The notes: a model not told the origin generated them from the sequence alone. A stretch of 64,000 nucleotides of DNA from a virus (IMGVR_UViG_3300025545_000003:1-64000); one strand, 5' to 3'. Counted from the first letter of the stretch, positions 31,846 through 45,564 are shown. Translations and numbers: made by a program.

Positions 31846-32004
31846 ATGTTGATCACGACGAAAAACGAACGCAGAAAGCGTCAAGCGCACGGGGCAACCC
31901 TGGCGTCGAAGCGCGACTCTCTGTTCGCAGCAGTCGTGAATCACCAGCCTGCCCCCGCCGCCATTGAGGGTTGTGATGACCCGATGGGGGCACCCGGCGA
32001 GTAA
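31846..32004 (+). CDS. putative 52-aa leader peptide
   Basis: GGAGG RBS; TTGACA at 31770; followed by a terminator. Confidence 0.35.
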   Translation: MLITTKNERRKRQAHGATLASKRDSLFAAVVNHQPAPAAIEGCDDPMGAPGE

Positions 32005-32028
32005 CCAAGCTCCATAAGTGGACTGGTG

Positions 32029-32063
32029 AAAGCCGGGTAACCGAAAGGTTCCCCGGCTTTTTT
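32029..32063 (+). terminator. intrinsic terminator
   Basis: AAGCCGGG...GAAA...CCCGGCTT hairpin followed by a T-run. Confidence 0.75.
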
Positions 32064-32117
32064 GCTTCTTGGGCCTGAGTTGGAACGTAGGGCCTACCCG
32101 GTAGCACCGGGAGTTGC

Positions 32118-32137
32118 GGTCTTTGACAACTGAATAG
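32118..32137 (+). promoter_or_regulatory. rrn-type boxA antitermination element
   Basis: GGTCTTTGACAACTGAATAG resembles rrn boxA (TGCTCTTTAACA). Confidence 0.55.
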
Positions 32138-32290
32138 TACGTGAAAACGCACCAACGAGGGCAGGGCGGGTCTAGCCCACTCGTCCTGCCCTCATTTTCA
32201 TAATGAACCCGTGCCCCGGTGGGCACGGCCAATCCCCTAACGGGGCAAGGTCAAGCAGGCTCAACACCTGCCACGGGTTCCCATGTTCAT

Positions 32291-32367
32291 GGTGGACGTA
32301 GCTCAATAGGTAGAGCCCCGGGTTGTGATCCCGGTGGTTGCGGGTTCGAAGCCCGTCGTTCACCCCA
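32291..32367 (+). tRNA. tRNA-His(GTG)
   Basis: cloverleaf; G-1/C73; encoded CCA. Confidence 0.9.
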
Positions 32368-32535
32368 TGAGAGGGGCTAAGGTCTGGTGTCCCGCACGGA
32401 GACGTGCAAAGGCAGCGTCGTCTAGGGTAGGCCACCCAACGATGACGGCGTTGTACTAGACCACATTATTCCGGCGAAGCTCATCTGGTAGAGCGGGCGG
32501 TTGACAACCGAAGGGTCTTGCCTTACTTTGAGGGC

Positions 32536-32946
32536 ATGAACAAGAGCCCTAAAACTATCGGCGAGCGCAGTGAAGGCATGGTGCTGGCAGCCCTCTTGAG
32601 GGCGGGCAAGGTTGTGTTGCAACCCTTCGGGGACAACCAACGGTACGACCTTGTGGTGGATGAGGATGGGAAATTCATCCGGGTCCAGTGCAAGACCGCC
32701 CGCTTGAAGAACGGCGCTTTGGCCTTCGATACATGCTCCTCTCAAACCCATCGGGGGAAGGGGAAGCAAGATTACAGGGGGCAAGCGGACTTGTTTGGGG
32801 TCTATTCTCCTGACAGGGACGCCGTGTACCTTGTACCCGTTGAGGATGTCGGGGTTACCCAAGCCCGACTCAGGCTGTCCAAACCTCGTAATGGCCAATC
32901 CAAAGGCGTCCGCTTTGCGGCGGATTATCTTCTCGATCTGGGGTAG
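32536..32946 (+). CDS. PD-(D/E)XK endonuclease (group I intron-associated type)
   Basis: YDLVV and RVQCKT motifs; stop codon lies inside tRNA-Asn. Confidence 0.8.
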   Translation: MNKSPKTIGERSEGMVLAALLRAGKVVLQPFGDNQRYDLVVDEDGKFIRVQCKTARLKNGALAFDTCSSQTHRGKGKQDYRGQADLFGVYSPDRDAVYLVPVEDVGVTQARLRLSKPRNGQSKGVRFAADYLLDLG

Positions 32947-33009
32947 CTCAATAGGTAGAGCGCCGGTCTGTTAAATCGGTTGTTGAGGGTTCAAGTCCCT
33001 CCCCCAGAG
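32937..33009 (+). tRNA. tRNA-Asn(GTT)
   Basis: cloverleaf. Confidence 0.9.
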
Positions 33010-33056
33010 CTACAAGCTCCTCATGTTGTGGGTTCGAGTCCCACCGCCGGAGCTTG

Positions 33057-33938
33057 AAGGGCTGGCTGTTCCCTTTCGGGGGTTCAGTCTGTGACGGGCC
33101 GTATGGGGTCCGTAGGAAACATCGGAGCAATCCGGTGGAAGGGGAGTCCTTGTCACAGGCCCCCGCCAGTCACCTCTCGGGGTGGTTGGTCCGTCCATGC
33201 AAGCCGTAGGTAGCCCGGTCAGGGCGGGTCGTCCACCAAAGGCGGCTCTAGTCCCGAGTCTGGGGTTGGCCCCACCGACAGGTGGGTGAAGCATGGCCTG
33301 TCAGCGATGGCAGTCATGCGAAGGATAGGCGGGGACGCCTTGAGCCAACCAATCCAACTGGACGAAGGAGGATTCCCAAGCGGCAGTCGGTCAGTTTGAG
33401 GGGTGGGAGCCCTGAAGGCGGTCGGCATGTAGAGGGGCGAAGGGTGAAATCCCCGGAGTCCTGAAGACAGGGTAAAGCCCGCCGGGGCGAATACCAGAGG
33501 ACGTGTTGCATTCCCCTCCTCAAAAGGGAAGGGAACGACTGGCAGGGCACGCCCTTATGACATGCGAATTAGCTCAGTTGGTAGAGCGCATCCTTCGTAG
33601 GGATGAGGTCGTTGGTTCAAGTCCAACCCTTGCAAACAAAGGAAAGACCCTGCCGGTCTGTGTGGTAAGTGACCTAATCCCGTCCCCGCAAGGGAAGGCG
33701 GGCCGGTGAAGCCCCCAAGGTGGAGCCGGTTGGTGGGAAGCTGAAGCGTAGGGGCGGCCACCCCTGCCGGATGTGGAAAGCCGATGCAGCACAGGCGACG
33801 AGGGAAACGCCACCCTCCAACAAAGGCGGTCACGACTGGCTACCGGGGAGACCCGGTGGACACGGGGAGAACTTGGCGGGGGACCGTCAAGGTAATGCCC
33901 TGAGAGGCCGGTTATGAAAACGGGTAGTCTCACCGTTC
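33057..33938 (+). ncRNA. GOLLD-like large structured RNA with embedded tRNA
   Basis: about 880 nt without a credible ORF; many tetraloop hairpins; AAGGGC/GCCCTT closing helix; 3' AACGG-GTAGTCTCA-CCGTT. Confidence 0.5.
33563..33635 (+). tRNA. tRNA-Thr(CGT), imperfect acceptor stem
   Basis: D, anticodon and T arms intact; two acceptor mismatches. Confidence 0.6.
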
Positions 33939-33971
33939 CTCATTCTCCCCTCCCTTCGGGGCGGGGACTAT

Positions 33972-34048
33972 CGGAGAGTAGCGCAGCCTGGTAGCGCACC
34001 TGGTTCGGGACCAGGGGGTCGGGGGTTCGAATCCCCCCTCTCCGACCA
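33972..34048 (+). tRNA. tRNA-Pro(CGG)
   Basis: cloverleaf; CCA. Confidence 0.92.
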
Positions 34049-34080
34049 CGACAGAGACAGCCCGGAGAGACGGGCACCAT

Positions 34081-34154
34081 CGGGATGTGGCGCAGTCTGG
34101 CAGCGCACTTGGCTGGGGGCCAAGGGGCCGTCGGTTCGAATCCGACCATCCCGA
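34081..34154 (+). tRNA. tRNA-Pro(GGG)
   Basis: cloverleaf. Confidence 0.9.
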
Positions 34155-34162
34155 CTTTCAAT

Positions 34163-34233
34163 CCTGACCTAGCTCAATGGCAGAGCGCTCGGCTGTGGAC
34201 CGGGAGATTCGGGTTCAACTCCCGGGGTTAGGA
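34163..34233 (+). tRNA. tRNA with GTG anticodon (atypical His: no G-1, A73)
   Basis: cloverleaf. Confidence 0.7.
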
Positions 34234-34315
34234 CGGACAAGGGCTATGGGGTAGAGGCCGAAGTTGGACGAGGCACATTAGACTGGCTATACTCTCCTCA
34301 TTAGTAGGAGGTAGC

Positions 34316-34936
34316 ATGTACAAGGAAGCCACGAAGCAAGAGGCCCTCCGCCTTCGCCAACAGCAGCGCCTTTCCCTTCGAGAGATCCAAGCCCAAACAG
34401 GGGTCTCTAAAGGAACCCTCTCCAAGTGGTTGCAGGGGATGCCGTTAGACAGGGAAGAGGTGCGGGCAAAACTCCGCCTCAATGGAACCAGCAAGGGACG
34501 AGCAAAAGCTGACCGGGTTGAATCTGCCTTACACCGCCGTTTCGGTGTTCCCATGAACAGCCACTACAAGGCTAAGATTGCAGAAGCAGCGATCCTTCTT
34601 CGGGCTGGCTTGTTGGGGGTGGATACCTACCAGAGCCCCTTTGATGGAGACAAGGCCGACTGGGTGTTTGATGTGAAGGGACGCCTCCTTAAGGTGCAGG
34701 TGAAATGGGCGGCCACACCAGCCAAACATGGGGCACCACAAGTGAAAGTACGATGTGCCGGGGGCCGTTCTGGACTCCGGTGCTACACGGAGGGGGAATT
34801 CGACATTCTTGTAGGATATGACCTTTACACCGACACTGCCTATGTGTGGACGTGGGATGAGGTGAAGGATTTCACCAGCACTGTTTCCTGTTGGGATGAA
34901 GCAGAGGAACGCTGGGACAAGATCACGGTCTCATAG
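34316..34936 (+). CDS. HTH + PD-(D/E)XK endonuclease
   Basis: N-terminal SLREI..TGVSK.TLS.W; DWVF and KVQVK motifs; stop codon lies inside tRNA-Asp. Confidence 0.8.
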   Translation: MYKEATKQEALRLRQQQRLSLREIQAQTGVSKGTLSKWLQGMPLDREEVRAKLRLNGTSKGRAKADRVESALHRRFGVPMNSHYKAKIAEAAILLRAGLLGVDTYQSPFDGDKADWVFDVKGRLLKVQVKWAATPAKHGAPQVKVRCAGGRSGLRCYTEGEFDILVGYDLYTDTAYVWTWDEVKDFTSTVSCWDEAEERWDKITVS

Positions 34937-35001
34937 GGGAGTCAGGAGTCCCCACCTGCCTGTCACGCAGGAGATCCCGGGTTCAAATCCCGGTGGGACC
35001 G
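34927..35001 (+). tRNA. tRNA-Asp(GTC)
   Basis: cloverleaf. Confidence 0.88.
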
Positions 35002-35175
35002 CCGGAGGAAGTGGGTTCGAGTCCCATCTATCCCGCTAATCGCCGGGGGTGAAACCCGGAGGAACACAGTGGAAGCAGCAGGCTCCCCCTCGGGGGAGGC
35101 CGTGCAAGCGTAACTCCTGCCGTGGAAGCTGTGGAAAACCGGGCGAATCCCCACTTGGGACCTTGTGGACACGCA

Positions 35176-35243
35176 GGCTGGGTAGCTCCAATCGGCAGAG
35201 CGCTGGGCAACGCTTGCACGGCTTTGGGCCCAGAGGTAGGGGG
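35176..35243 (+). pseudogene. tRNA-like element with expanded anticodon loop
   Basis: D and T arms present; about 20-nt loop; weak acceptor stem. Confidence 0.5.
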
Positions 35244-35304
35244 TTCGAGTCCTTCCCTGGGTACACAAGAAGCGGGATGTCCAAGTTCCAACGGCGATTT
35301 TCAT

Positions 35305-35377
35305 GGGGGTGAGGTCTGCTGGGCGGACGCTGGCTTGTCAGGTCAGAACGGGGAGGGTTCGATTCCCTTCACTCCCG
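35305..35377 (+). tRNA. tRNA-Asp(GTC), atypical (A8)
   Basis: cloverleaf; G73. Confidence 0.7.
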
Positions 35378-35381
35378 CTTT

Positions 35382-35454
35382 GGGTCCGTAGTGTTAATGT
35401 AGCATCCCTGGCTCTTAACCAGGCGGGTGGCGGGTTCAAGTCCCCCCGGACTCA
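35382..35454 (+). tRNA. tRNA-Lys(CTT)
   Basis: cloverleaf with some mismatches. Confidence 0.7.
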
Positions 35455-35469
35455 CTGAAGTGTTTTCAT

Positions 35470-35542
35470 CCCTCCGTGGCGCAATTGGTAGCGCAAACGG
35501 CTCTTAACCGTGAGGTTGAAGGTTCGATTCCTTCCGGGGGGA
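35470..35542 (+). tRNA. tRNA-Lys(CTT)
   Basis: cloverleaf. Confidence 0.85.
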
Positions 35543-35560
35543 CTAGCGTTTGTACTTTGT

Positions 35561-35637
35561 GACCCCGTCGTCTAGTTGGCTAGGACACCAGACTCTCAAT
35601 CTGGAGATCGCCGGTTCAAACCCGGTCGGGGTTACCA
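35561..35637 (+). tRNA. tRNA-Glu(CTC)
   Basis: cloverleaf; CCA. Confidence 0.9.
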
Positions 35638-35638
35638 T

Positions 35639-35712
35639 CCTCCCGTAGCTCAGTAGGTAGAGCGGCGGCCCGATAAGCCGTGACAGCGAAGGTTCAATTC
35701 CTTTCGGGAGGA
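35639..35712 (+). tRNA. tRNA-Ile(GAT)
   Basis: cloverleaf; C33. Confidence 0.8.
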
Positions 35713-35739
35713 CTAGCAGAGGACTGTGGTGCTGGTTCA

Positions 35740-35813
35740 GCATAGATAGCTCAATTGGTTGAGCATCGGTCATTCAAACCGACGGTTACAGGTTCGATCC
35801 CTGTTCGTTTGCA
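35740..35813 (+). pseudogene. degenerate tRNA (TTC loop, poor acceptor stem)
   Basis: D, anticodon and T arms present; A33; broken acceptor stem. Confidence 0.5.
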
Positions 35814-35846
35814 ACAGCCCGACACCCGACCTTCCTCTGCTTCCCT

Positions 35847-35966
35847 CGAACAGTAGCTCAGTGTTGATGTACCCCCGCCAAGTTGCCGGTTGATGAAGCG
35901 GAAGGGCATCGATAGGGAGAGCGCCGGGACACTCGGAGGCCGCTGGTTCAAACCCAGCCTGTTCGA
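35847..35966 (+). ncRNA. tRNA-like RNA with a long hairpin inserted in the D-loop and no anticodon
   Basis: perfect acceptor, D and T stems; about 53-nt insert; 3-nt anticodon loop. Confidence 0.65.
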
Positions 35967-35970
35967 CTTT

Positions 35971-36042
35971 GCGGGCGTAGCTCAGTGGTAGAGCATCGGG
36001 TTGCCAATCCGAAGGTCGTGGGTTCGAATCCCATCGCCCGCT
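35971..36042 (+). tRNA. tRNA-Gly(GCC)
   Basis: cloverleaf. Confidence 0.92.
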
Positions 36043-36046
36043 CTAT

Positions 36047-36120
36047 GGTGTGGTCTTCTAATTGGCTAGGAAATCGGCCTTTCAAGCCGGGGAATGCGGG
36101 TTCGAATCCCGTCCACACTA
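36047..36120 (+). tRNA. tRNA-Glu(TTC)
   Basis: cloverleaf. Confidence 0.88.
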
Positions 36121-36293
36121 CAAGAAGTCCGGTAGCCACCGGACGCGGCCGGAGACACCCCCGGTCGTCAGTCAGGTTGGCATCTGACGAACAGGGTAGC
36201 CGATCCCCGGTAATGGGGCGTCGTCAGGGAGGCGAAAGTAGGGCAACCGAAGGACGGTCTGAAATACATCGTCCGGGTCTTACCCCTGATCAT

Positions 36294-36369
36294 GGGGCCT
36301 TAGCTCACTTGGGAGAGCGTCGGGATGGCATTCCGAAGGTAGCGGGTTCGATCCCCGCAGGCTCCACCA
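36294..36369 (+). tRNA. tRNA-Ala(GGC)
   Basis: cloverleaf; G3:U70; CCA. Confidence 0.92.
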
Positions 36370-36370
36370 G

Positions 36371-36398
36371 GGCTTAGTTGCAGATCTATCTGCGTTGA
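36371..36398 (+). promoter_or_regulatory. putative phage promoter
   Basis: GGCTTAG-N13-TGCGTTGA. Confidence 0.55.
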
Positions 36399-36472
36399 TG
36401 GGGCGTCGTCCAAAGGCAGGACCCTGGGTTTTGGTCCCAGTGATGAGGGTTCGAATCCTTCCGCCTCAGCCA
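36399..36472 (+). tRNA. tRNA-Gln(TTG)
   Basis: cloverleaf; CCA. Confidence 0.9.
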
Positions 36473-36486
36473 TTCAAGGAGGTGTC

Positions 36487-37287
36487 ATGAGCAAGATAGT
36501 AAAAGGCACCTCCCGGAGCGGTGTAGGAACTACGTTGGTGGTTCCGCAGCACCGGCTGGTGTTCGACATGGGGGCTCCCCTGGTGGAGTCCTTGGGCGTC
36601 CGTAAGGTGTTCATCACCCACGGGCACATGGATCACGCAGGGGCTCTGGTGTTCCACGCCAGCACACGGGGAATGATGGGAATGGGGCCGCCCCTGTTCC
36701 ACGTCCCGGCCTGGATGGAAGCCGACCTTCGGGTGATACTGAAGGCCGCCGCCCGCCTCAACGGTGGGGGAGTCCAGTTCGACATGGTCCCCATGGAAGC
36801 GGGCAAGAGTCACGATCTGGGAGGGCCTCGCAGAGTGGTGCCCTTCTACACCGACCACCGGCTACCGTGCCTCGGCTACAAGGTCTACCAGACCCGAAAC
36901 AAGCTCCGGGATGAGTTCATAGGACTTCCCGGAGAGGAGATCGGGCGGCTTCGGAAGGGTGGAACGGAAGTCACCCGTGAGGTAGAAGCCTTGGCACACA
37001 CGCACGTAGGGGACAGCCGGGTGACCGTGCTGGACAAACACCCCGAGGTGTTCCAGTCAGATGTGCTGGTGCTTGAGTGTACGTTCGTGGGCGACTACTC
37101 CTTGGAGGAAACGCACAAGCGGGGGCACACGCACCTGTCCGAACTGGCAGAGCGTGCGGAATTATTCAAGGACGTGAAGGCCGTTGTCCTGACACACTTC
37201 TCGATGCGACACAGCGAGAAGGAGGTCAAGGCGGAGGTCGCCAAGCTCCCCGAGTCCCTTCGGGACAAGATCCACCTCGTTTTCTAG
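36487..37287 (+). CDS. rnz: ribonuclease Z (tRNase Z, MBL fold)
   Basis: FDMG, ITHGHMDH, GDS, LECTF, GH.H and LTHFSMR motifs; located inside the tRNA array. Confidence 0.85.
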   Translation: MSKIVKGTSRSGVGTTLVVPQHRLVFDMGAPLVESLGVRKVFITHGHMDHAGALVFHASTRGMMGMGPPLFHVPAWMEADLRVILKAAARLNGGGVQFDMVPMEAGKSHDLGGPRRVVPFYTDHRLPCLGYKVYQTRNKLRDEFIGLPGEEIGRLRKGGTEVTREVEALAHTHVGDSRVTVLDKHPEVFQSDVLVLECTFVGDYSLEETHKRGHTHLSELAERAELFKDVKAVVLTHFSMRHSEKEVKAEVAKLPESLRDKIHLVF

Positions 37288-37371
37288 CCCCCTCTCGGGG
37301 GCATCATTGGGGCATAGCTCAATTGGTAGAGTACCGTTGAACTTTGTGCGCTTTACCCTTACACTAGAAGC

Positions 37372-37953
37372 ATGGGACGAAAGAGCCACATCTGGGACAC
37401 ACCCCCGGAACGCTTCCGCCAACTGGTACACACCCACACCACATGGAAAGGGCTCGCATTAGCCCTTGGGATGTCGATCTGTGGGGGGACATTCAAGACC
37501 ATCCGTAAAAGGATCCAGCAAGATGGGTTGGACGATCATCATTTGCGAGAGGGGGCCTCAAAACGAGGTGGCCTTTTGGCCGCTAAGAAACAGGAGCAGC
37601 CCCTTTCAGAGATCATGGTGAAAGATTCTTCCTACTCACGGTACCACCTAAAGGCCCGTCTACTGCGAGACAGGGTGTTGGAAAACAAGTGTGCCATGTG
37701 CGGTCTCGATCCTGTTTGGGAAGGAGATCCCCTCGTGATGGTTCTTGACCACATAAACGGGGAACCCCAAGACCACCGGGCAGGGAATCTGAGGTTGGTC
37801 TGCCCCAACTGCAACTCACAGCTTCCAACCTTTGCAGGTCGGAAAACGAAAAAGGGCGAGGTTCTTTGTGTGGACTGCGGGACACCCATCCACACAAGAA
37901 GTACCAGATGTCGTTCATGTAGCGGCAGGCATCGTTATTTTACTGGGGAGTAA
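37372..37953 (+). CDS. HNH endonuclease
   Basis: C..CG, LDHING...D.R..NLR.VCPNC; stop codon lies inside tRNA-Gln. Confidence 0.85.
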   Translation: MGRKSHIWDTPPERFRQLVHTHTTWKGLALALGMSICGGTFKTIRKRIQQDGLDDHHLREGASKRGGLLAAKKQEQPLSEIMVKDSSYSRYHLKARLLRDRVLENKCAMCGLDPVWEGDPLVMVLDHINGEPQDHRAGNLRLVCPNCNSQLPTFAGRKTKKGEVLCVDCGTPIHTRSTRCRSCSGRHRYFTGE

Positions 37954-38016
37954 CTCAACTGGCAGAGTGCCGTCCTCTGAAGGCGGATGTTGTGGGTTCG
38001 AGTCCCACCTCCCCAG
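37944..38016 (+). tRNA. tRNA-Gln(CTG)
   Basis: cloverleaf. Confidence 0.88.
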
Positions 38017-38087
38017 CCCATAGGTTGAAGGTTCAAGTCCTTCTGCCCCAGCTATGGCGGGACGCACAGGCAGTGCAGGCCGTCTAA

Positions 38088-38160
38088 CGCAGTGTAGCTC
38101 AACAGGTAGAGCGCTGGTCTCATAAGCCGGAGGTTCCCGGTTCAATTCCGGGCACTGCGA
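38088..38160 (+). tRNA. tRNA-Met(CAT), elongator-type
   Basis: cloverleaf; paired C1-G72. Confidence 0.85.
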
Positions 38161-38175
38161 CTACAGCGGTACTAG

Positions 38176-38249
38176 GGCGACGTAGCCAAGTTGGTTAAAG
38201 CACTGGTCTGCAAAACCAGAGATCCCCGGTTCGAATCCGGGCGTCGCCT
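38176..38249 (+). tRNA. tRNA-Cys(GCA)
   Basis: cloverleaf; U73. Confidence 0.88.
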
Positions 38250-38322
38250 CTTTTCGGACGGTAGCTCAGTGGTAGAGCTTCGGTAGCTCTCCTATCAGGA
38301 GTCTCATGGTAGGAGGTGGGCT

Positions 38323-38670
38323 GTGACAACCATCGTGAAATGTGAGCAGTGCGGCAGGGAGTACGTCCCGGACAGGAAAAAGGGACACCGTGGAACCCTT
38401 TGCAACTCTTGTGTGGTCAACACCAGGAGAGCAAGCGTAAAGGAAAAGGCAGTCTCCTACAAAGGAGGGGCGTGCGCCATCTGCGGTTACGACCGGTGTG
38501 CGAGAGCCTTGGGGTTCCACCATAAGGACCCTGCCAAGAAGGATTTTCCTCTTGGGGCCAACTACACGAGGTCGTGGGACAAACTGAAGGTGGAGTTGGA
38601 TAAGTGCATCCTCCTCTGCGCCAACTGTCACGCTGAAGTTCATGATGGGATGGTTGAACTCGGGGGGTAG
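38323..38670 (+). CDS. HNH endonuclease
   Basis: YKGG.C..CGY, FHH.DP and KC.LLCANCH motifs; stop codon lies inside tRNA-Ile. Confidence 0.85.
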   Translation: MTTIVKCEQCGREYVPDRKKGHRGTLCNSCVVNTRRASVKEKAVSYKGGACAICGYDRCARALGFHHKDPAKKDFPLGANYTRSWDKLKVELDKCILLCANCHAEVHDGMVELGG

Positions 38671-38733
38671 CTCAGTGGCTAGAGCGAACGGCTGATAACC
38701 GTTAGGGCGAGGGTTCGAGTCCCTCTCTCCCGA
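38661..38733 (+). tRNA. tRNA-Ile(GAT)
   Basis: cloverleaf. Confidence 0.88.
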
Positions 38734-38877
38734 CTTTTACTACCGTGGGGCCGGAGGTTCGAATCCTCCTCGTCCGACCAGTAGGGAAAGGTGGCGGTCT
38801 GAGAGCCTGCCGGGTTCTGCAAGGCCCAATGGTTCAACGTCTGTTGCAGCAGGCCCCGTGCGCCGCCCTGCGTTCAT

Positions 38878-38947
38878 GCCCTCGCCCGTGGATCGGGGCT
38901 TTGGTCTTCTAAACCGGAGGTCGAGGGTTCGATTCCTTCCGGGGGCG
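38878..38947 (+). tRNA. tRNA-Arg(TCT), truncated D-arm
   Basis: acceptor, anticodon and T arms intact; lacks the U8/A9 connector. Confidence 0.6.
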
Positions 38948-39006
38948 CTAGTTTGTCTATGGGCAGGGGATGGTAGAGTGGATCGACTCCACGAGGAGAT
39001 ACCGTC

Positions 39007-40179
39007 ATGGGCTACAACGTCCCCGAACCTTACGCCTCGCTCCTTGCCACGTACCCCGACGTAGCGAACGTCAAGTACGTGTCCCCACCGGATGCTAACC
39101 ATCTGGAGGGAACGGGGGACGGCTCATTGGTCAACCCGTACAGGGGCATCCAGACGGCCATCGATGCTTTTCCGCCCACAGAGATGCCTCCGCCTGACCC
39201 GGCGGACATGGGCCCAGAGGATCTGGTCAACCTGTTCCGGTTCATCGTCGTCAATTCGGGTGTGTACGACGAGAGCCCCATTATCACAGAGGCAGGGCTC
39301 TGGTCCTTTCAATCAGCAGGGCAGGTCCTGCTGATCTCCCCTGTGGCTTTCGCTTACCTGTGGGATCCTGAGCACGAGCCGCCCCCGTCCATTGACGACA
39401 TGCGGTTCTTCCACCTGAACCCGGATGAAACCAAGCTTGACGCTTGGGGCATGTTCATCTTGGACATTCAGCCCCTCTACGGTGCCCCGAAAGACAAGAT
39501 GATCGGCGGCATCGGCAGGAACGGCAGCACCGGGGGTCTGCAGATGTGGACCCTTATGGGCGGGATCGTCTACGAGGTGGAAGCACCCCTCGGTGGCTGG
39601 ACGCACACCCCGTCGCCGTCCATTAGCTTGAAAGATGTCTACGGCCTGGTACTCGTCCCTGGAGAGAACGGGGATTGGGAAGCCGACATCAACATCGACT
39701 GTGACCGAGTCTCGTTCAACTACTTCGAAGTCCTGGGGCTGGAGAAGTACGACGTCGAGATCCTCAACTCCGCCTTCAGTGGCCTTGAGCAGTACTCTGG
39801 ACCTGGTGCCCCTATCTACACGCAGACCTGCCGGTTCTGGGCCAGCAACTGCAACATCACGGGCGACGTGTTCGTGGCAGACGCCGACATCGTGTTCGAC
39901 CACGTTTCCATGAGCGGTGGAGACCTGATTTTCAGGACCTACTGGTCCATCCTGGACTGCAACCTGGACGTCAACGAGTGGGAACACACACAGTCCCCGT
40001 CGGGATCGGTCATCATCAACACCTACTTCGACGTGAACTCGTGGGGTGCGGCCCTTCCCCTGAACGCCCTGAACGTCTGCGCCACCACCTGTGCGATGAG
40101 CAGTTCGGCCCTGTCCAGCTTGCCCGTCCCACATAGCAACTACGCATCAGTCACGAACAGCGTCGTGATCCCCCCGTAA
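39007..40179 (+). CDS. hypothetical acidic protein with a GDGS..NPY..IQ.AID motif (possible beta-helix)
   Basis: GAGGAG RBS; motif typical of DUF1565-like N-termini. Confidence 0.6.
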   Translation: MGYNVPEPYASLLATYPDVANVKYVSPPDANHLEGTGDGSLVNPYRGIQTAIDAFPPTEMPPPDPADMGPEDLVNLFRFIVVNSGVYDESPIITEAGLWSFQSAGQVLLISPVAFAYLWDPEHEPPPSIDDMRFFHLNPDETKLDAWGMFILDIQPLYGAPKDKMIGGIGRNGSTGGLQMWTLMGGIVYEVEAPLGGWTHTPSPSISLKDVYGLVLVPGENGDWEADINIDCDRVSFNYFEVLGLEKYDVEILNSAFSGLEQYSGPGAPIYTQTCRFWASNCNITGDVFVADADIVFDHVSMSGGDLIFRTYWSILDCNLDVNEWEHTQSPSGSVIINTYFDVNSWGAALPLNALNVCATTCAMSSSALSSLPVPHSNYASVTNSVVIPP

Positions 40180-40182
40180 CCT

Positions 40183-40255
40183 GCCCCAGTAGCTCAGTGG
40201 ATAGAGCATCGGTCTCCTAAACCGAGGGCCGCAGGTTCGATTCCTGCTTGGGGCA
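40183..40255 (+). tRNA. tRNA-Arg(CCT)
   Basis: cloverleaf. Confidence 0.9.
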
Positions 40256-40333
40256 CTCCCTTCAACAGCACCGCAACAAGGAGAACACCATGGTACTTCG
40301 TCTCAAACAGCCGCCGACCCCCATTCGTTTACT

Positions 40334-40409
40334 GGGCCGGTAGCTCAACTGGATAGTCAGCAAGCGGCTTTTAACCGCTAGGTTCCGGGTTCAAGTCCCG
40401 GTCGGCCCA
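40334..40409 (+). tRNA. tRNA-Lys(TTT)
   Basis: cloverleaf. Confidence 0.88.
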
Positions 40410-40414
40410 CTATT

Positions 40415-40488
40415 GCGGACGTAGCCAAGAGGTAAGGCATCGGGCTTCCACCCCGTGAGCGCCGGTTCGATTCCGGTCGTCCGCTCCA
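40415..40488 (+). tRNA. tRNA-Gly(TCC)
   Basis: cloverleaf; CCA. Confidence 0.88.
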
Positions 40489-40495
40489 CCAACAG

Positions 40496-40523
40496 GGCTT
40501 AGGTAGTTCCTCTATTGCGTAGA
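40496..40523 (+). promoter_or_regulatory. putative phage promoter
   Basis: GGCTTAG-N13-TGCGTAGA. Confidence 0.6.
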
Positions 40524-40897
40524 CACCCATGGGTAGGATGTCAGCCTCGGTGAAGCTGGGTACGCAGTGGAGGGGCACAAAACGACGCCTGCACCGCCCG
40601 TGAGATAGGCCCAAACGGGGAACCGTCAACCGGGGAGGGGGTGGAAGTCCTCTTGACCCGCCCGGAAGGGTCCTGCGTTGAGCCGTCATCTTGAGGGCGG
40701 CCTTGAAGGGCAGCGTAGGTACACCCCCTGAAGGACGCCCTTTGGCTGGTGCTTGGACTGGCCCCTGTGGATGAGGGTTTGTATCAACCAAGCTGGAAGC
40801 GGAGTACTCGTCCCCATTGTTGAATCCCACCTTCGGGTGCGGTACTGGACGAGCCGGAAGTACCCCATGGCACGGCGTACTTCCGGCTGTGGGCGTG
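40524..40897 (+). ncRNA. candidate structured ncRNA (about 370 nt)
   Basis: own promoter motif; no credible ORF; paired ends; perfect AGCCGGAAGTAC/GTACTTCCGGCT hairpin. Confidence 0.4.
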
Positions 40898-40898
40898 A

Positions 40899-40970
40899 GG
40901 GCGTATAACTCAGCGGAAGAGTGCCGTCTTGACAAGGCGGAAGTCCCTGGTTCAATCCCAGGTACGCCCA
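40899..40970 (+). tRNA. tRNA-Val(GAC)
   Basis: cloverleaf. Confidence 0.9.
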
Positions 40971-40987
40971 CTGAATCGGAGGGCTAG

Positions 40988-41173
40988 GTGACGAACAAGG
41001 ACAAGTGGTTCGCAACCTGTATGGTGTTGATGCTTGTGACAGGCTTCGGTCTTGTGGGGCTTGGCCTCGACTCAACGCTGGCATCGATCTTTGAGGTGGC
41101 CGCAGCCGCCATCTGGCTCTTTGGAGTTCCGAAAGTCAGCCGTAGAGCACACCAGTACATCTACGGCAGGTAG
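40988..41173 (+). CDS. small two-helix membrane protein
   Basis: GGAGG RBS; hydrophobic segments. Confidence 0.55.
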   Translation: MTNKDKWFATCMVLMLVTGFGLVGLGLDSTLASIFEVAAAAIWLFGVPKVSRRAHQYIYGR

Positions 41174-41179
41174 TTTTGG

Positions 41180-41251
41180 CGCGGGGTAGGGAAGTGGCAT
41201 CCTCCTTGGCTCATAACCAAGGGATCGGCGGTTCAAGTCCGCCCCCCGCAA
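41180..41251 (+). tRNA. tRNA-fMet-like (CAT)
   Basis: C1:A72 mismatch; CGCGGGG acceptor. Confidence 0.8.
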
Positions 41252-41398
41252 CCTCTCGGGCAATCTGACTCGGCCCGTAAGCCCGCCCCACGTCCCCGTC
41301 AGGGTGACGAGCACCCGAAAGGGTAGGGCAACAGGAGCAGACCGTGGGAAGACGCTTTGTACAGCGTCGGAATGCGTCCCGGAGGGACGCCCCACCGT

Positions 41399-41470
41399 GC
41401 GGGTGTAGTTCAGGGGTAGAACGTCAGCTTCCCAAGCTGGATGTCGTGGGTTCGAATCCCATCACCCGCT
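41399..41470 (+). tRNA. tRNA-Gly(CCC)
   Basis: cloverleaf. Confidence 0.9.
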
Positions 41471-41474
41471 CTAT

Positions 41475-41547
41475 GGGGCCTTAGCTCACTTGGGAGAGCG
41501 CCGCTTTTGCAAGGCGGAGGTAGCCGGTTCGATCCCGGCAGGCTCCA
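41475..41547 (+). tRNA. tRNA-Ala(TGC)
   Basis: cloverleaf; G3:U70. Confidence 0.92.
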
Positions 41548-41550
41548 CTA

Positions 41551-41605
41551 TGGGGAGGGCGGGGTGGTCAGGCCCGAAAGGGAGCAGCCATCCTGACCCT
41601 ACCCA
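41551..41605 (+). ncRNA. ffs: minimal SRP (4.5S)-like RNA, helix 8/domain IV
   Basis: GG-TCAGG-CCC-GAAA-GGG-AGCAG-CC symmetric-loop signature on a long hairpin. Confidence 0.7.
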
Positions 41606-41608
41606 CCA

Positions 41609-41636
41609 GGCTTAGCCTCCCGTTCACCTGTGTTGA
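41609..41636 (+). promoter_or_regulatory. putative phage promoter
   Basis: GGCTTAG-N13-TGTGTTGA. Confidence 0.7.
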
Positions 41637-41659
41637 AGAGGTGGACGACGGAGGACGAC

Positions 41660-42106
41660 ATGAGCGTTACATTTTGGTGCCCCGAAGCTCCCCGAGAGGC
41701 CATCGAGACCCCTTGCTGGGGCGAGTGCGACGAAACCTGCCCCATGTGTCACGGCACCAACGTGACCACGGAACAGGTCAGCCCGCACGAGATGAACCTC
41801 GCCAACGCCAACGCCTACAACATCCTCCTCGCCTTGGGTGTCCAGAGTGACGAATCCATGTGCGGCGGGTGGGAGACCCCCGAGGACATCCGCACCATCA
41901 GGGCGGCGATCCTCAAGGCCCGCAACGTGACAGGCCGCAGGGAAGGGGCACACCGAGACGCCGAATCCTACGGCGGGCCGGGAACTGGAACCTGCCGGGT
42001 CGTTTCGCAGGGCTACACCGACGAGCAGGTACTCGACCGGCTGACCCGGTTGGACAAGCTCCTCGCCTACGCTTTGGAGAACAGTCACCGGGTGGTTTGG
42101 GGATGA
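41660..42106 (+). CDS. hypothetical protein
   Basis: GGAGG RBS; follows a promoter motif. Confidence 0.6.
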   Translation: MSVTFWCPEAPREAIETPCWGECDETCPMCHGTNVTTEQVSPHEMNLANANAYNILLALGVQSDESMCGGWETPEDIRTIRAAILKARNVTGRREGAHRDAESYGGPGTGTCRVVSQGYTDEQVLDRLTRLDKLLAYALENSHRVVWG

Positions 42107-42681
42107 GTGCTCACCGTGAGCGTGTGAAAATGCTCAAGCGGGTCAACGCCCACCAGCAAGTCAACGACCCCTTCTGGTTGTCCGGCTACACCGACGGAAG
42201 CCACCATCCCGACACAGGGAAGGGCGGCGTGGGCCTGTGGGTACGGGACAACGAGACCCGAATCCTCAAGGCTATACCGACCCCTCCGTGGGCTGTGAAC
42301 TCCAACCTCGTGGAACTGTTCGGGGTCTGCGCCGCCATTGAGACGGCCCTGACGGAACTCACACAGGAAGCCAACATCCTCGTCATCAAGACGGACAGCC
42401 AGAGCACGGCCAACTGGTTCGGCTGGCAGGGCAACAAGTCCGTACCGAAGCAGCCTGAAGCCCTCGAGATGATGCAGCACGTCCTAGAGCTTGCCACCGA
42501 CCGCCGAGTGAAGGTGGTCGTCAAGTGGGTGAAGGGACACCAAGGCACGGGCAGCGTCGTGGGCTACTTGAACAACCGGGTCGACAAGATGGCCCGTGAT
42601 GCACGACTGAAAGGTGTACCCTCTCGCTGGTCCTGCCGGGTCAACGAGGAACGCAAGCAAGGGCCTGTAGCTCAACGGTAG
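42103..42681 (+). CDS. rnhA: RNase HI-like protein
   Basis: YTDGS, N..EL, TDSQ, KWVKGH and N..VD motifs. Confidence 0.8.
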   Translation: MSAHRERVKMLKRVNAHQQVNDPFWLSGYTDGSHHPDTGKGGVGLWVRDNETRILKAIPTPPWAVNSNLVELFGVCAAIETALTELTQEANILVIKTDSQSTANWFGWQGNKSVPKQPEALEMMQHVLELATDRRVKVVVKWVKGHQGTGSVVGYLNNRVDKMARDARLKGVPSRWSCRVNEERKQGPVAQR

Positions 42682-42733
42682 AGCCTCCCGCTCATAACGG
42701 GACGGTCGACGGGTTCGACTCCCTCCGGGCCCA
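42661..42733 (+). tRNA. tRNA(CAT), probably Ile2
   Basis: cloverleaf with GGGCCTG acceptor; overlaps the rnhA 3' end. Confidence 0.8.
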
Positions 42734-42783
42734 CTAGCCCCTAAACAGCAAGCAGCAGGGTAGGATAAGGCAGGAGGTGCCTC

Positions 42784-43023
42784 ATGCCGGATCTACCCTA
42801 CGTGATGCTCACTGGACTCATCCTCATGCTGGTCGGTGTTCCCCTCTGGATGTACCGCTCAGAGAAGAAGAAGGTGGAGGCCGGGTGTTGCGGGAAGCCG
42901 TGGATCTCCTACTGCCGTGACTCACAGGGCGGCATCGGCTTGAACTGTCAGGAGTGCGACAACGGCACTTGGGTATCCTACTACCGCAAGGGCTTCGTTG
43001 AGGGCGAACAGCAACCATTCTAG
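42784..43023 (+). CDS. small membrane-anchored protein
   Basis: AGGAGG RBS; N-terminal TM helix. Confidence 0.55.
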   Translation: MPDLPYVMLTGLILMLVGVPLWMYRSEKKKVEAGCCGKPWISYCRDSQGGIGLNCQECDNGTWVSYYRKGFVEGEQQPF

Positions 43024-43093
43024 GCTCGTAGCTCAGTGGGAGAGCGCCTGCTTCACACGCAGGAAGTCCCCGGTTCAAAACCGGGCGGGCCTA
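43022..43093 (+). tRNA. tRNA-Val(CAC)
   Basis: cloverleaf. Confidence 0.88.
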
Positions 43094-43111
43094 CTTTGAA
43101 GGAGGGCTAAC

Positions 43112-43639
43112 ATGGAAAGCACACGCAGAGGGTTCCTTGCAGGAGCCGCTGGAGTCACAGGTTGGCTCCTGTTCGGCAAGGGTGCCGAAGCCGCAGCGAA
43201 GGCCGAGGGCAACCGTGTCCTGCGGGAGTTCGATGAGGACGTTGAGGGGTTTCCGCATCACGTCATCGAGATGCAGTTGACCTACGACAACCCGATGCTC
43301 CAGTTCGACGTGCCACTGCCGGACTCGGACTTCGATGGCCTACAGATCAGCATCCCAAGGCGTCAGACGGTGGGCCGCCACACGGCGACGGAGCTTGTGG
43401 ACTACCACAAGCGGAGCCAACCCGACGGTGACATCTGGGGGATCATCCGCCAGCGTGTACCCCAGATGGCACAGGCGAGGGTGAAGAATCCCGCCTACGG
43501 CGACCACAAGATGCACATCGCCACGGTGGTGTGCCACTGCCCGAGCGGGATCGAGGTGGGCATGACGGTGTTGCCCGTAGGCGTGACCGTCGAGGACATG
43601 CACCTGACCATCCCGGCAACGCTGTTGCCGCAGTCCTGA
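43112..43639 (+). CDS. hypothetical protein with Tat signal peptide
   Basis: TRRGFL twin-arginine motif, hydrophobic region and AEA site. Confidence 0.65.
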   Translation: MESTRRGFLAGAAGVTGWLLFGKGAEAAAKAEGNRVLREFDEDVEGFPHHVIEMQLTYDNPMLQFDVPLPDSDFDGLQISIPRRQTVGRHTATELVDYHKRSQPDGDIWGIIRQRVPQMAQARVKNPAYGDHKMHIATVVCHCPSGIEVGMTVLPVGVTVEDMHLTIPATLLPQS

Positions 43640-43657
43640 CAACGCACAAGGCTCCAA

Positions 43658-43733
43658 GGGCGAGTAGCGCAGTGGAAGTAGCACCGGCTTTACAAGCCGT
43701 AGGTCGTGGGTTCAATCCCCACCTCGCCCACCA
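43658..43733 (+). tRNA. tRNA-Val(TAC)
   Basis: cloverleaf; CCA. Confidence 0.8.
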
Positions 43734-43737
43734 TTCA

Positions 43738-43765
43738 GGCTTAGCCGGACGCCCGTCCGTGTAGA
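43738..43765 (+). promoter_or_regulatory. putative phage promoter
   Basis: GGCTTAG-N13-CGTGTAGA; ATG at 43773. Confidence 0.7.
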
Positions 43766-43772
43766 GAACCTC

Positions 43773-44078
43773 ATGAAGCAGGAAACCCAAGAGTGCCCCC
43801 TGTGCCACCGTGACTGCCCACAGGCGATCATGACGGAGCACCACTTGAAGACCCGCAGGGTGGACAAGGACGACACGGCGATGCTGTGCCGGGAGTGCCA
43901 CAAGACGGTACACGGGCTCTTTGACAACAAGGAACTACGGGACTCGTCCAGAGGGCTGGACACGGTCGAGGGGCTGCTTGCAGACCCCTTGATCCGAAAG
44001 GCCCTCTCCCACATCAGGAAGCTCCCGCCCGGTCAGTTCATGCGGATGTATCGGGCCGGACGCCGCAAGAAGCGCTAG
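43773..44078 (+). CDS. small HNH-domain protein
   Basis: CPLC, EHH and LCRECH..VH motifs. Confidence 0.7.
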   Translation: MKQETQECPLCHRDCPQAIMTEHHLKTRRVDKDDTAMLCRECHKTVHGLFDNKELRDSSRGLDTVEGLLADPLIRKALSHIRKLPPGQFMRMYRAGRRKKR

Positions 44079-44094
44079 ACACCAATCCAAACAT

Positions 44095-44168
44095 GCCCCG
44101 GTAGCTCAGTGGATTAGAGCACACCCCTGCGGAGGGTGGGGTCGGAGGTTCGAATCCTCTCCGGGGTA
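44095..44168 (+). tRNA. tRNA-Arg(GCG)
   Basis: cloverleaf. Confidence 0.88.
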
Positions 44169-44228
44169 CTTGTGCGCCCGTAGCTTTATGGTTTCTCCTC
44201 CGGTATTATCCGGGCAACAGGAGGAACC

Positions 44229-44741
44229 ATGCCAACCTGCAAGAAATGTGGTGTCTCATTCCCCAACAGGATAACGGTTGAGGGGGGCAGGCGAAACATC
44301 TCCAGACGGAAATTCTGCCTGACATGTTCCCCTTGGGGGTCTCGAAACCGAAAAGACCTGAGTGCCCCCTCGATTACCAGCGGAGTGAAAACCTGCCCTC
44401 GGTGTGGGGACGTGAAGGAACTCACTGAGTTCTACACCAGACGGAGAGGTAAGGAGTCCGAGCCTTCCTCCTACTGTAAGGCATGCGCCGCAGAGGAAGC
44501 ACGGGGACGTATGCGGGCATTGAAAGCCCGTTGCGTTGAGTACAAGGGAGGCGGGTGCCGGGTTTGTGGGTACTCGAAAAGCCTCGCTGCGTTGGATTTC
44601 CATCACAGGGATCCCAAGGAGAAAGGTTACGGGATTTCGCAGATCCGAGGTTGGAAATTCGAACGGGTAAAGGAAGAATTAGATAAATGTGACCTTCTGT
44701 GTCGGAATTGCCACTCAGAGGTTCATGACGAGGCCCTGTAA
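44229..44741 (+). CDS. HNH endonuclease with zinc fingers
   Basis: YKGG.C..CGY, FHH.DP and KC.LLC.NCH motifs; stop codon lies inside tRNA-Arg. Confidence 0.85.
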   Translation: MPTCKKCGVSFPNRITVEGGRRNISRRKFCLTCSPWGSRNRKDLSAPSITSGVKTCPRCGDVKELTEFYTRRRGKESEPSSYCKACAAEEARGRMRALKARCVEYKGGGCRVCGYSKSLAALDFHHRDPKEKGYGISQIRGWKFERVKEELDKCDLLCRNCHSEVHDEAL

Positions 44742-44804
44742 CCCAGTGGATAGGGTGCCTGACTTCGAATCAGGTTGTCGCAGGTTCGAGTCCTGCCAGG
44801 GCCA
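44732..44804 (+). tRNA. tRNA-Arg(TCG)
   Basis: cloverleaf. Confidence 0.88.
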
Positions 44805-44841
44805 TCAGGTTGGGAGTTCGAATCTCCCCGGGCGTTCTTTT

Positions 44842-44918
44842 CAGGGGGTAGCTCAGTCTGGCAGAGTCCCGGCCTTGGACGCCGGTTGTCGCGGGTTCGA
44901 ATCCCGCCTCCCTGACCA
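44842..44918 (+). tRNA. tRNA-Pro(TGG)
   Basis: cloverleaf; CCA. Confidence 0.92.
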
Positions 44919-45018
44919 GCCGTAGGAAAAGCGTTGATCACGTATTGTTCAGATAGGAGTATGAGGGGGAGTGCCATGACCGGCATGTCGTAATCAACAA
45001 CCCTCCGAGGAGGCGGAG

Positions 45019-45564
45019 ATGGAAACCTTGGTTTTGAGTCAGAGTTACACGCCGATAAGCCGAGTCCCGTGGCAGAAGGCCATCACATGGGTCGTGCTGG
45101 ATCGTGCCGAAGTCGTAGAAGAGTACGACGAGGCCCAGATCCGCTCCGCCTACAAGGTCTTCCCGATGCCGTCGGTTATCCGTCTGCTCCACAACGTGAC
45201 TGGCTTGTTCCGCAAGGGTGCGAAGTTCAACCGCAAGAACGTATGGCTCCGTGACAAGGGGAAGTGCCAGTACTGCGGGACCAAGGTCTCCATGTCTGAC
45301 TTCACGTTCGACCACGTCGTGCCCCAGTCCAAGGGCGGGCGCACCAAGTGGGAGAACATCGTCGTGGCCTGCTACAAGTGCAACCAGCGGAAGGGTGACC
45401 TCACCTTGGAGAAGGCACGGATGCGCCTGCGTGTCCCGCCGGTAAAGCCGAGGTCGCTGCCCGGTATGGCGTTCCCGACGTTGACGTGGGGAGACAAGAT
45501 GCCGGAGACGTGGAAGGACTACCTCGGCTCCTACAGCTACTGGAACCAGTCCCTCAAGGAATGA
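45019..45564 (+). CDS. HNH endonuclease (McrA-like family)
   Basis: PSVIRL, RD...CQYCG and DHVVP..GG...W.N.V.AC..CN motifs. Confidence 0.88.
   Translation: METLVLSQSYTPISRVPWQKAITWVVLDRAEVVEEYDEAQIRSAYKVFPMPSVIRLLHNVTGLFRKGAKFNRKNVWLRDKGKCQYCGTKVSMSDFTFDHVVPQSKGGRTKWENIVVACYKCNQRKGDLTLEKARMRLRVPPVKPRSLPGMAFPTLTWGDKMPETWKDYLGSYSYWNQSLKE

Follow-up and report, generated by a model that had tools for sequence, protein, structure and literature searches.

Nuclease genes in a phage tRNA array stop on positions 8 to 10 of the downstream tRNA

We analyzed a 64,000-nucleotide (nt) stretch of viral DNA (IMGVR_UViG_3300025545_000003:1-64000; hereafter the window, whose coordinates are used unless stated otherwise), in which five nuclease open reading frames (ORFs) lie in an array of transfer RNA (tRNA) genes. 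An initial annotation had claimed that all five use positions 8 to 10 of the adjoining inner tRNA as their stop codon. ARAGORN predictions, the ORF list, and inspection of the junctions bear this out: each ORF stops exactly at U8-A9-R10 of the next same-strand tRNA, three times with TAG and twice with TAA. All five are also nucleases, as had been stated, two belonging to PF11645 (PDDEXK_5) and three being HNH nucleases by PHROG. The ORFs and their inner tRNAs, with lengths in amino acids (aa), are as follows.

32518..32946, + strand: PD-(D/E)XK nuclease ORF (PDDEXK_5, I-Ssp6803I-like), 142 aa; PF11645, E 7e-37; 2ost_A, E 1e-7; stop TAG at 32944-46, tRNA-Asn positions 8-10
32937..33010, + strand: inner tRNA-Asn(GTT), intact; first 10 nt common to ORF 32518..32946 (ARAGORN)
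34316..34936, + strand: HTH + PDDEXK_5 nuclease ORF, 206 aa; PF11645, E 1.5e-11; stop TAG at 34934-36, tRNA-Asp positions 8-10
34927..35003, + strand: inner tRNA-Asp(GTC) (ARAGORN)
37372..37953, + strand: HNH nuclease ORF, 193 aa; phrog_10822, E 4e-40; stop TAA at 37951-53, tRNA-Gln positions 8-10
37944..38020, + strand: inner tRNA-Gln(CTG), with an A10-U25 pair; start 37943 by ARAGORN, 37944 by cloverleaf geometry
38323..38670, + strand: short HNH nuclease ORF, 115 aa, GTG start; phrog_2255, E 1e-28; stop TAG at 38668-70, tRNA-Ile positions 8-10
38661..38734, + strand: inner tRNA-Ile(GAT) (ARAGORN)
44229..44741, + strand: HNH nuclease ORF, 170 aa; phrog_2255, E 2e-51; stop TAA at 44739-41, tRNA-Arg positions 8-10
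44732..44804, + strand: inner tRNA-Arg(TCG), with an A10-U25 pair (ARAGORN)

The PF11645 scores were 126.9 bits for 32518-32943 and 44.9 bits for 34316-34933 (cut-off, 26.1). In a 19-sequence PDDEXK_5 alignment, residues D39, D44, and Q57 were invariant, and E19 and K59 were nearly so. The ORF at 32518-32946 also matched PDB entry 2ost_A (E 1.1e-7), which we take to be I-Ssp6803I. The three HNH ORFs matched PHROG HNH families; their Pfam HNH matches fall under the Pfam cut-offs. For tRNA-Gln, standard geometry (a 7-base-pair stem TGGGGAG/CTCCCCA, U8, A9, a D-stem from position 10, U1-A72, and G73) sets the start at 37944, not at ARAGORN's 37943, and the TAA at 37951-53 therefore occupies positions 8-10. 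The stop in tRNA-Gln and tRNA-Arg is TAA rather than TAG because of the A10-U25 pair.

The nuclease ORFs are free-standing: they lie beside or between tRNA genes, not in an intron, and each fills nearly the whole insert, leaving no space for a group I ribozyme. Paralogues in the phage are at most 34-40% identical and have tails of unequal length. Thus, the five junctions are independent, and judged by these comparisons the shared stop appears convergent across nuclease families. The last two to three codons of each ORF are the acceptor strand of the tRNA, so recombination cannot part nuclease and tRNA. The genetic linkage of the two, proposed in the initial annotation, was thereby upheld; clades of related nucleases also track tRNA isotypes (see below).

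Each of the five nuclease-tRNA units is nested in an older tRNA gene that has been destroyed, with one half on either side. A script identified these remnants by looking for a T arm downstream of the inner tRNA and, ahead of the ORF, for an acceptor strand that pairs completely.

32470..32502, + strand: older Asn-like tRNA, 5' remnant covering positions 1 to ~33; pairs through its acceptor strand with 33028..33052
33028..33052, + strand: 3' remnant of the older Asn-like tRNA (T arm, acceptor strand, discriminator)
34248..34256, + strand: short 5' remnant in the Asp cassette, acceptor strand GGGGTAG plus 2 nt; pairs with 35011-35034
35011..35034, + strand: 3' remnant after tRNA-Asp (T arm and acceptor strand)
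37308..37336, + strand: older Gln-like tRNA, 5' remnant with the D arm and acceptor TGGGGCA
38027..38051, + strand: 3' remnant of the older Gln-like tRNA (T arm and TGCCCCA-G)
38255..38278, + strand: 5' remnant of an older tRNA in the Ile cassette (CGGACGG and D arm)
38753..38776, + strand: 3' remnant of the older tRNA in the Ile cassette (T arm and TCGTCCG)
44174..44185, + strand: 5' remnant of an older Arg-like tRNA (GCGCCCG-TAGCT)
44812..44835, + strand: 3' remnant of the older Arg-like tRNA (T arm and CGGGCGT)

In the older Asn-like tRNA, the break falls within the anticodon loop. Of 39 relatives that were examined, four or five also carry nested split-tRNA cassettes; one of these stops at position 8, and the others have their own stop or read deeper into the tRNA. 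In several PDDEXK_5 relatives (L083, L019, L139, L141, and L138), the 3' half of a tRNA (T arm and acceptor) directly follows the nuclease stop, with no intact inner tRNA. In these cases, the nuclease has apparently interrupted a tRNA gene and supplied no replacement copy.

The window covers the initial 64 kb of a phage record of 106,830 base pairs with 62% G+C, and seawater metagenomes from 17 studies hold DNA near-identical to this phage. The record contains 52 tRNA genes in two arrays and one transfer-messenger RNA (tmRNA) gene. The plus-strand array (32292-44918) comprises 34 plus-strand tRNAs by ARAGORN, with spacers between tRNA genes of often just 1-4 nt. When this 13-kb array was compared by megablast with 50,697 phage records, only single-tRNA matches and no relative were found. 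The tmRNA gene lies outside the window at genome positions 67424-67789 on the minus strand (L001:3424-3789); it is a full-length match to Rfam RF00023 (121.5 bits) and encodes the tag peptide ANETLPMQAAA. A suppressor tRNA that reads TAG was ruled out, as the CTA anticodon is absent among the 52 tRNAs.

Three more overlaps with an upstream gene emerged when the 52 tRNAs were all scanned in the three frames. The first involves a sixth HNH nuclease in the second array (genome 70979-71620, minus strand; L001:6979-7620), which is likewise nested in a split tRNA, here Leu-like (GCGACCG... / ...CGGTCGC). Its stop, TGA, is positions 4-6 of tRNA-Leu(tag); this tRNA carries TGG at positions 8-10, so no stop is available there. 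The second is a QueF-like gene between two tRNA-Phe(GAA) genes (genome 72651-73237, minus strand; L001:8651-9237). It ends with TAG at positions 8-10 of the downstream tRNA-Phe and has no split-tRNA remnant. The third serves as a comparison case:

41860..42681, + strand: RNase H-like ORF, 273 aa, not a homing nuclease; enters tRNA-Met (42661-42734) in another frame, with TAG at positions 19-21

In total, 8 of the 52 tRNAs (15%) are overlapped by an upstream gene, and all six homing nucleases end in the first 10 nt of their tRNA. The remaining genes beside tRNAs stop 0-20 nt upstream, and every ORF-to-tRNA junction in the genome lies between -20 and +21 nt.

Promoter and terminator scans yielded sites no more numerous than in shuffled sequence; none of them separates an ORF from its tRNA, and a single promoter-like site was noted at 34265-34293. 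Positions 32000-45200 were compared with two metatranscriptome runs and two metagenome runs, all as assembled contigs, which carry no RNA end information. There was heavy cross-matching from tRNAs of other organisms, and no empty-site alleles were seen in the contigs of related populations, which were too short to reveal them. Each of the two metatranscriptome runs contained a contig of ~850 nt near-identical to 33078-33937 (tRNA-Thr and two small ORFs) at a depth of 22-26; such contigs do not separate RNA from carried-over DNA. Two other features of the array deserve mention. At 38882-38948, ARAGORN predicted a tRNA-Arg(TCT) of 67 nt with its anticodon at position 27, which is unusually short and may be without a D arm or a remnant. 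A gene for an MBL-fold hydrolase lies within the array at 36487-37287.

Relatives of PDDEXK_5 nucleases were gathered from viral and metagenome contigs, and the stop of each was located relative to the nearest same-strand tRNA. Such a tRNA was present at -9 to +44 nt from the stop in 43 of 79 distinct contexts. The stop starts at position 8 in 16 of these 43 (37%), between -9 and 0 in 19, and at positions 3, 13, 13, 19, 37, 38, 43, and 44 in the other eight. The initial annotation had named stops at random positions in homologous cassettes as the observation that would speak against a functional role, and the tabulation gave a divided answer: position 8 recurs in 16 contexts, and 27 of the 43 have their own stop or other positions. 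The closest relatives (L068 and L069, 84% identity) end on their own TGA upstream of the tRNA, at -6. The natural C terminus of PDDEXK_5 proteins is ...DYE[LIF], to which the position-8 ORFs add two to four unconserved residues encoded by the spacer and the acceptor strand. On the nuclease tree, the position-8 state is scattered, with 14 changes for 17 rows (a quick tree, with 45 of 76 inner branches open), and it appears to be labile.

The partner tRNAs of the PDDEXK_5 relatives were mostly Asn(GTT), followed by Thr(GGT) and Lys(TTT). Individual nuclease clades track one isotype: L076/L079/L091 are paired with Thr(GGT), L125/L144/L131 with Lys(TTT), and the window's clade with Asn(GTT). This pairing suggests that target specificity co-evolves with the partner tRNA.

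The comparison rests mainly on PDDEXK_5, because no related locus was found for the HNH protein of 37372-37950 and only two were found for the HTH-PDDEXK protein. One homologue of the HTH-PDDEXK gene, in L049, ends on positions 8-10 of a tRNA-Gly. The HNH relatives in phrog_2255 are mostly away from tRNAs, and the few adjacent ones stop at -7, 13, or 46. The fetched loci contained further position-8 ORFs, among them an MBL-fold hydrolase gene of L049, an unrelated 436-kb viral contig; this gene (L049:5415-6279) ends with TAA at positions 8-10 of a tRNA-Ile. Its product also resembled the anti-Pycsar Apyc1 family weakly (17 bits, under the cut-off). A stop at positions 8-10 is not nuclease-specific: it is used by the QueF-like gene of the phage and by the MBL-fold hydrolase gene in L049. 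The observation made in the initial annotation is right and broader than first stated.

We compared the junctions with what the choice of reading frame would give by itself. The share of relatives that stop at position 8 (16 of 43) was statistically indistinguishable from one third (p = 0.35). Frame use was even among ORFs that retain a stop of their own, of which 8 of 19 lie in the 8-10 frame (p = 0.28). Only the read-in ORFs were biased to the 8-10 frame (16 of 24, p = 9e-4), a bias that looks like the signature of selection against long read-in. These results are as expected if frames fall at random at the junction, own stops are frequently lost, and extensions of 13-44 nt into the tRNA are selected against, a stop at 8-10 being nearly free of cost. 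For the phage itself, five of five junctions at position 8 have a probability of (1/3)^5 = 0.004 with random frames and of 0.007 with the frequency in the relatives (16/43). The phage genome exceeds chance in this respect, though the pattern was chosen post hoc.

Taken together, the shared stop is probably a by-product of tight packing of nuclease and tRNA genes, with U8-A9-R10 acting as the default stop. The five ORFs would be free-standing homing-endonuclease genes in a very compact phage tRNA array, each placed flush with the 5' end of an intact tRNA. If the natural C terminus of the protein lies a few nucleotides from tRNA position 1 and the gene has lost its own stop, translation would continue to the first in-frame stop, which would be the almost invariant U8-A9-R10 (TAG or TAA) of the tRNA. 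A junction in the 8-10 frame would cost two to four extra unconserved residues and could be tolerated. In the other two frames, genes retain a stop of their own shortly before the tRNA or, rarely, run 13-44 nt into it. Two causes may underlie this anatomy: tight linkage, which would hold the nuclease with the travelling copy of the tRNA, and general compaction combined with purifying selection against deeper read-in.

The nucleases may be active homing endonucleases that cut tRNA genes. Two indirect pointers to such a target are the older tRNA broken in its anticodon loop and the nuclease clades that track tRNA isotypes. Tight linkage may then be what is selected, and the non-stop message that results from RNase P processing would be an unavoidable side effect.

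Several points limit this reading or do not fit a pure by-product. The junction statistics take no account of common descent, and the tree has little resolution. From the frequencies in the relatives, a probability of only ~0.004 is expected for six of six nucleases ending in the first 10 nt. Within the phage genome, nucleases overlap their tRNA more often than non-nuclease neighbours do (6 of 6 versus 2 of 7, Fisher p = 0.02). A lineage-specific pressure beyond a lottery of frames is therefore likely in this genome. In addition, among 519 distinct tRNA contexts (all fetched loci and the phage genome), TAA, corresponding to A10-U25, was enriched in tRNAs that end an ORF of at least 100 aa (6 of 36, compared with 9 of 246 for tRNAs that end no such ORF; Fisher p = 0.006); restricted to verified genes, the count was 3 of 24 (p = 0.08). 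This is a weak hint that the tRNA adapts to its role as terminator, which the pure by-product model does not predict. If real, the enrichment points to selection for good termination.

A rival reading is that the overlap itself is selected, since a nuclease that shares nucleotides with a needed tRNA can be neither recombined away nor cleanly deleted. The nuclease-specific excess of overlaps in the genome and the conserved pairing of nuclease and isotype agree with such a shield against deletion, as does the nesting in split tRNAs, which forces the nuclease and the replacement tRNA to travel jointly. However, a spacer of 0-9 nt with an own stop links the two genes practically as well and is as common in the relatives (19 versus 16), and nested cassettes with own stops exist (L106, L144, and L014). 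The overlap also gives no protection from inactivating point mutations. We regard selection of the overlap as such as unlikely.

The initial annotation had further proposed that the arrangement down-regulates a toxic nuclease. Its premise is logically sound: a cut by RNase P at -1/+1 must take off the last two and a third codons together with the stop, leaving a non-stop message. Ribosomes arriving after the cut would need rescue. In a selected form of dosage control, later ribosomes would stall and the host or phage tmRNA would tag the nuclease for degradation, so that each transcript would yield little untagged enzyme. Once RNase P acts, the non-stop product is unavoidable, and the same reasoning has been published for bacterial overlaps of coding sequences (CDSs) with tRNA or tmRNA genes (PMC4131195). 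That the phage encodes a tmRNA, and that its six homing nucleases all overlap their tRNA, which non-nuclease genes do less often, would also be in keeping with dosage control. The comparisons nevertheless argue against it. The state is labile and scattered on the tree, the closest relatives keep their own stop, and the family-wide share of 37% is what random frames would give. The same stop is used by the nontoxic QueF and MBL-fold hydrolase. A phage tmRNA was found in two of five relatives with the position-8 state versus two of five without it (4 of 10 large viral contigs with PDDEXK_5-tRNA cassettes, a small sample), and the TAA enrichment would, if real, indicate that termination is selected to be efficient rather than to be lost. 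Moreover, processing would equally strip the 3' protection from any mRNA that has its stop codon a few nucleotides before the tRNA, and rescue of the ArfA/ArfB type would release a protein short of unconserved tail residues only. We thus consider it doubtful that the arrangement evolved to limit nuclease dosage, and this part of the initial annotation was not sustained.

A variant confined to this lineage is conceivable at a similarly low probability. Pioneer ribosomes would end on U8-A9-R10 before maturation, RNase P would then make the messages non-stop, and the phage tmRNA would clear stalled ribosomes and surplus nuclease, while position 10 would drift to A (giving TAA) and sharpen the first termination. 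Least probable of all is that the five junctions fell into one frame by luck with no selection on the junction: the pattern was spotted post hoc and the family-wide share is indistinguishable from one third, but the five-of-five probability of 0.004-0.007 speaks against luck, and the frame bias of read-in ORFs among the relatives argues for at least purifying selection.

Compact packing as the preferred explanation can be set against known systems. In bacteria, CDS overlaps with tRNA or tmRNA genes are predicted to yield non-stop mRNAs, examples being smpB-ssrA in Carsonella and FtsW-tRNA-Ile in Helicobacter (Hudson, Lau & Williams 2014, PMC4131195). There, 250 overlaps by an upstream CDS were counted per 115,660 tRNAs and tmRNAs in 2,031 genomes, ~0.2% (PMC4131195). 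The phage junctions are of this class, with the CDS upstream, in the same orientation, and its stop inside a valid tRNA gene. As in the bacterial cases, a same-strand gene enters the 5' part of the RNA gene, and RNA maturation should remove the stop and create a tmRNA substrate. Unlike them, the phage overlaps affect 8 of 52 tRNAs, which is ~70-fold more frequent, involve mobile nuclease genes, and use one precise triplet, positions 8-10.

Among phages, a precedent is SegB of T4, a GIY-YIG homing endonuclease whose free-standing gene lies in the tRNA cluster of that phage; according to PMC2330249, SegB cleaves tRNA genes in related phages and promotes inheritance of the tRNA region to which it belongs. 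The two systems share a free-standing endonuclease gene among phage tRNA genes. The nucleases described here differ in being PD-(D/E)XK and HNH enzymes, in lying flush with a replacement tRNA, and in being nested in a split tRNA; one passage of PMC2330249 that mentions a stop codon or overlap describes no shared stop. I-Ssp6803I is the PD-(D/E)XK homing endonuclease of the group I intron in tRNA-fMet of Synechocystis (PMC1995217). It shares with the phage genes the PF11645 fold family and the association with tRNA genes, and in the Asn cassette the older tRNA is broken in the anticodon loop. Unlike I-Ssp6803I, which lies inside a self-splicing intron, the phage genes are intron-less and stand 5' of a whole tRNA.

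In mitochondria, excision of the tRNA sets the 3' end of the upstream mRNA, the tRNA punctuation reportedly described by Ojala et al. in 1981. The mRNAs there finish with T or TA, and polyadenylation completes the stop. Mitochondria and the phage both have compact genomes whose coding regions touch or overlap tRNA genes. The phage stops, unlike the incomplete ones of mitochondria, are complete TAG or TAA triplets 8-10 nt within the tRNA and would be lost, not created, on processing. Our literature search found no published account of phage nuclease genes, including HNH genes, that end on tRNA positions 8-10 or in the acceptor stem.

The analysis describes and quantifies a recurrent anatomy, in which nuclease genes lie flush with tRNAs in phage arrays, for the sampled PD-(D/E)XK family and for the HNH genes of this phage genome. 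About a third of the tRNA-adjacent PD-(D/E)XK genes use U8-A9-R10 as their stop. For annotation, this means that such ORFs are easily truncated or missed where tRNA calls mask them. Overlaps are ~70-fold more frequent here than in bacteria, and the cassettes are therefore a convenient natural system for studying whether tRNA maturation yields non-stop messages and what role a phage tmRNA plays. The anatomy is also relevant to the movement of selfish nuclease-tRNA cassettes within tRNA arrays.

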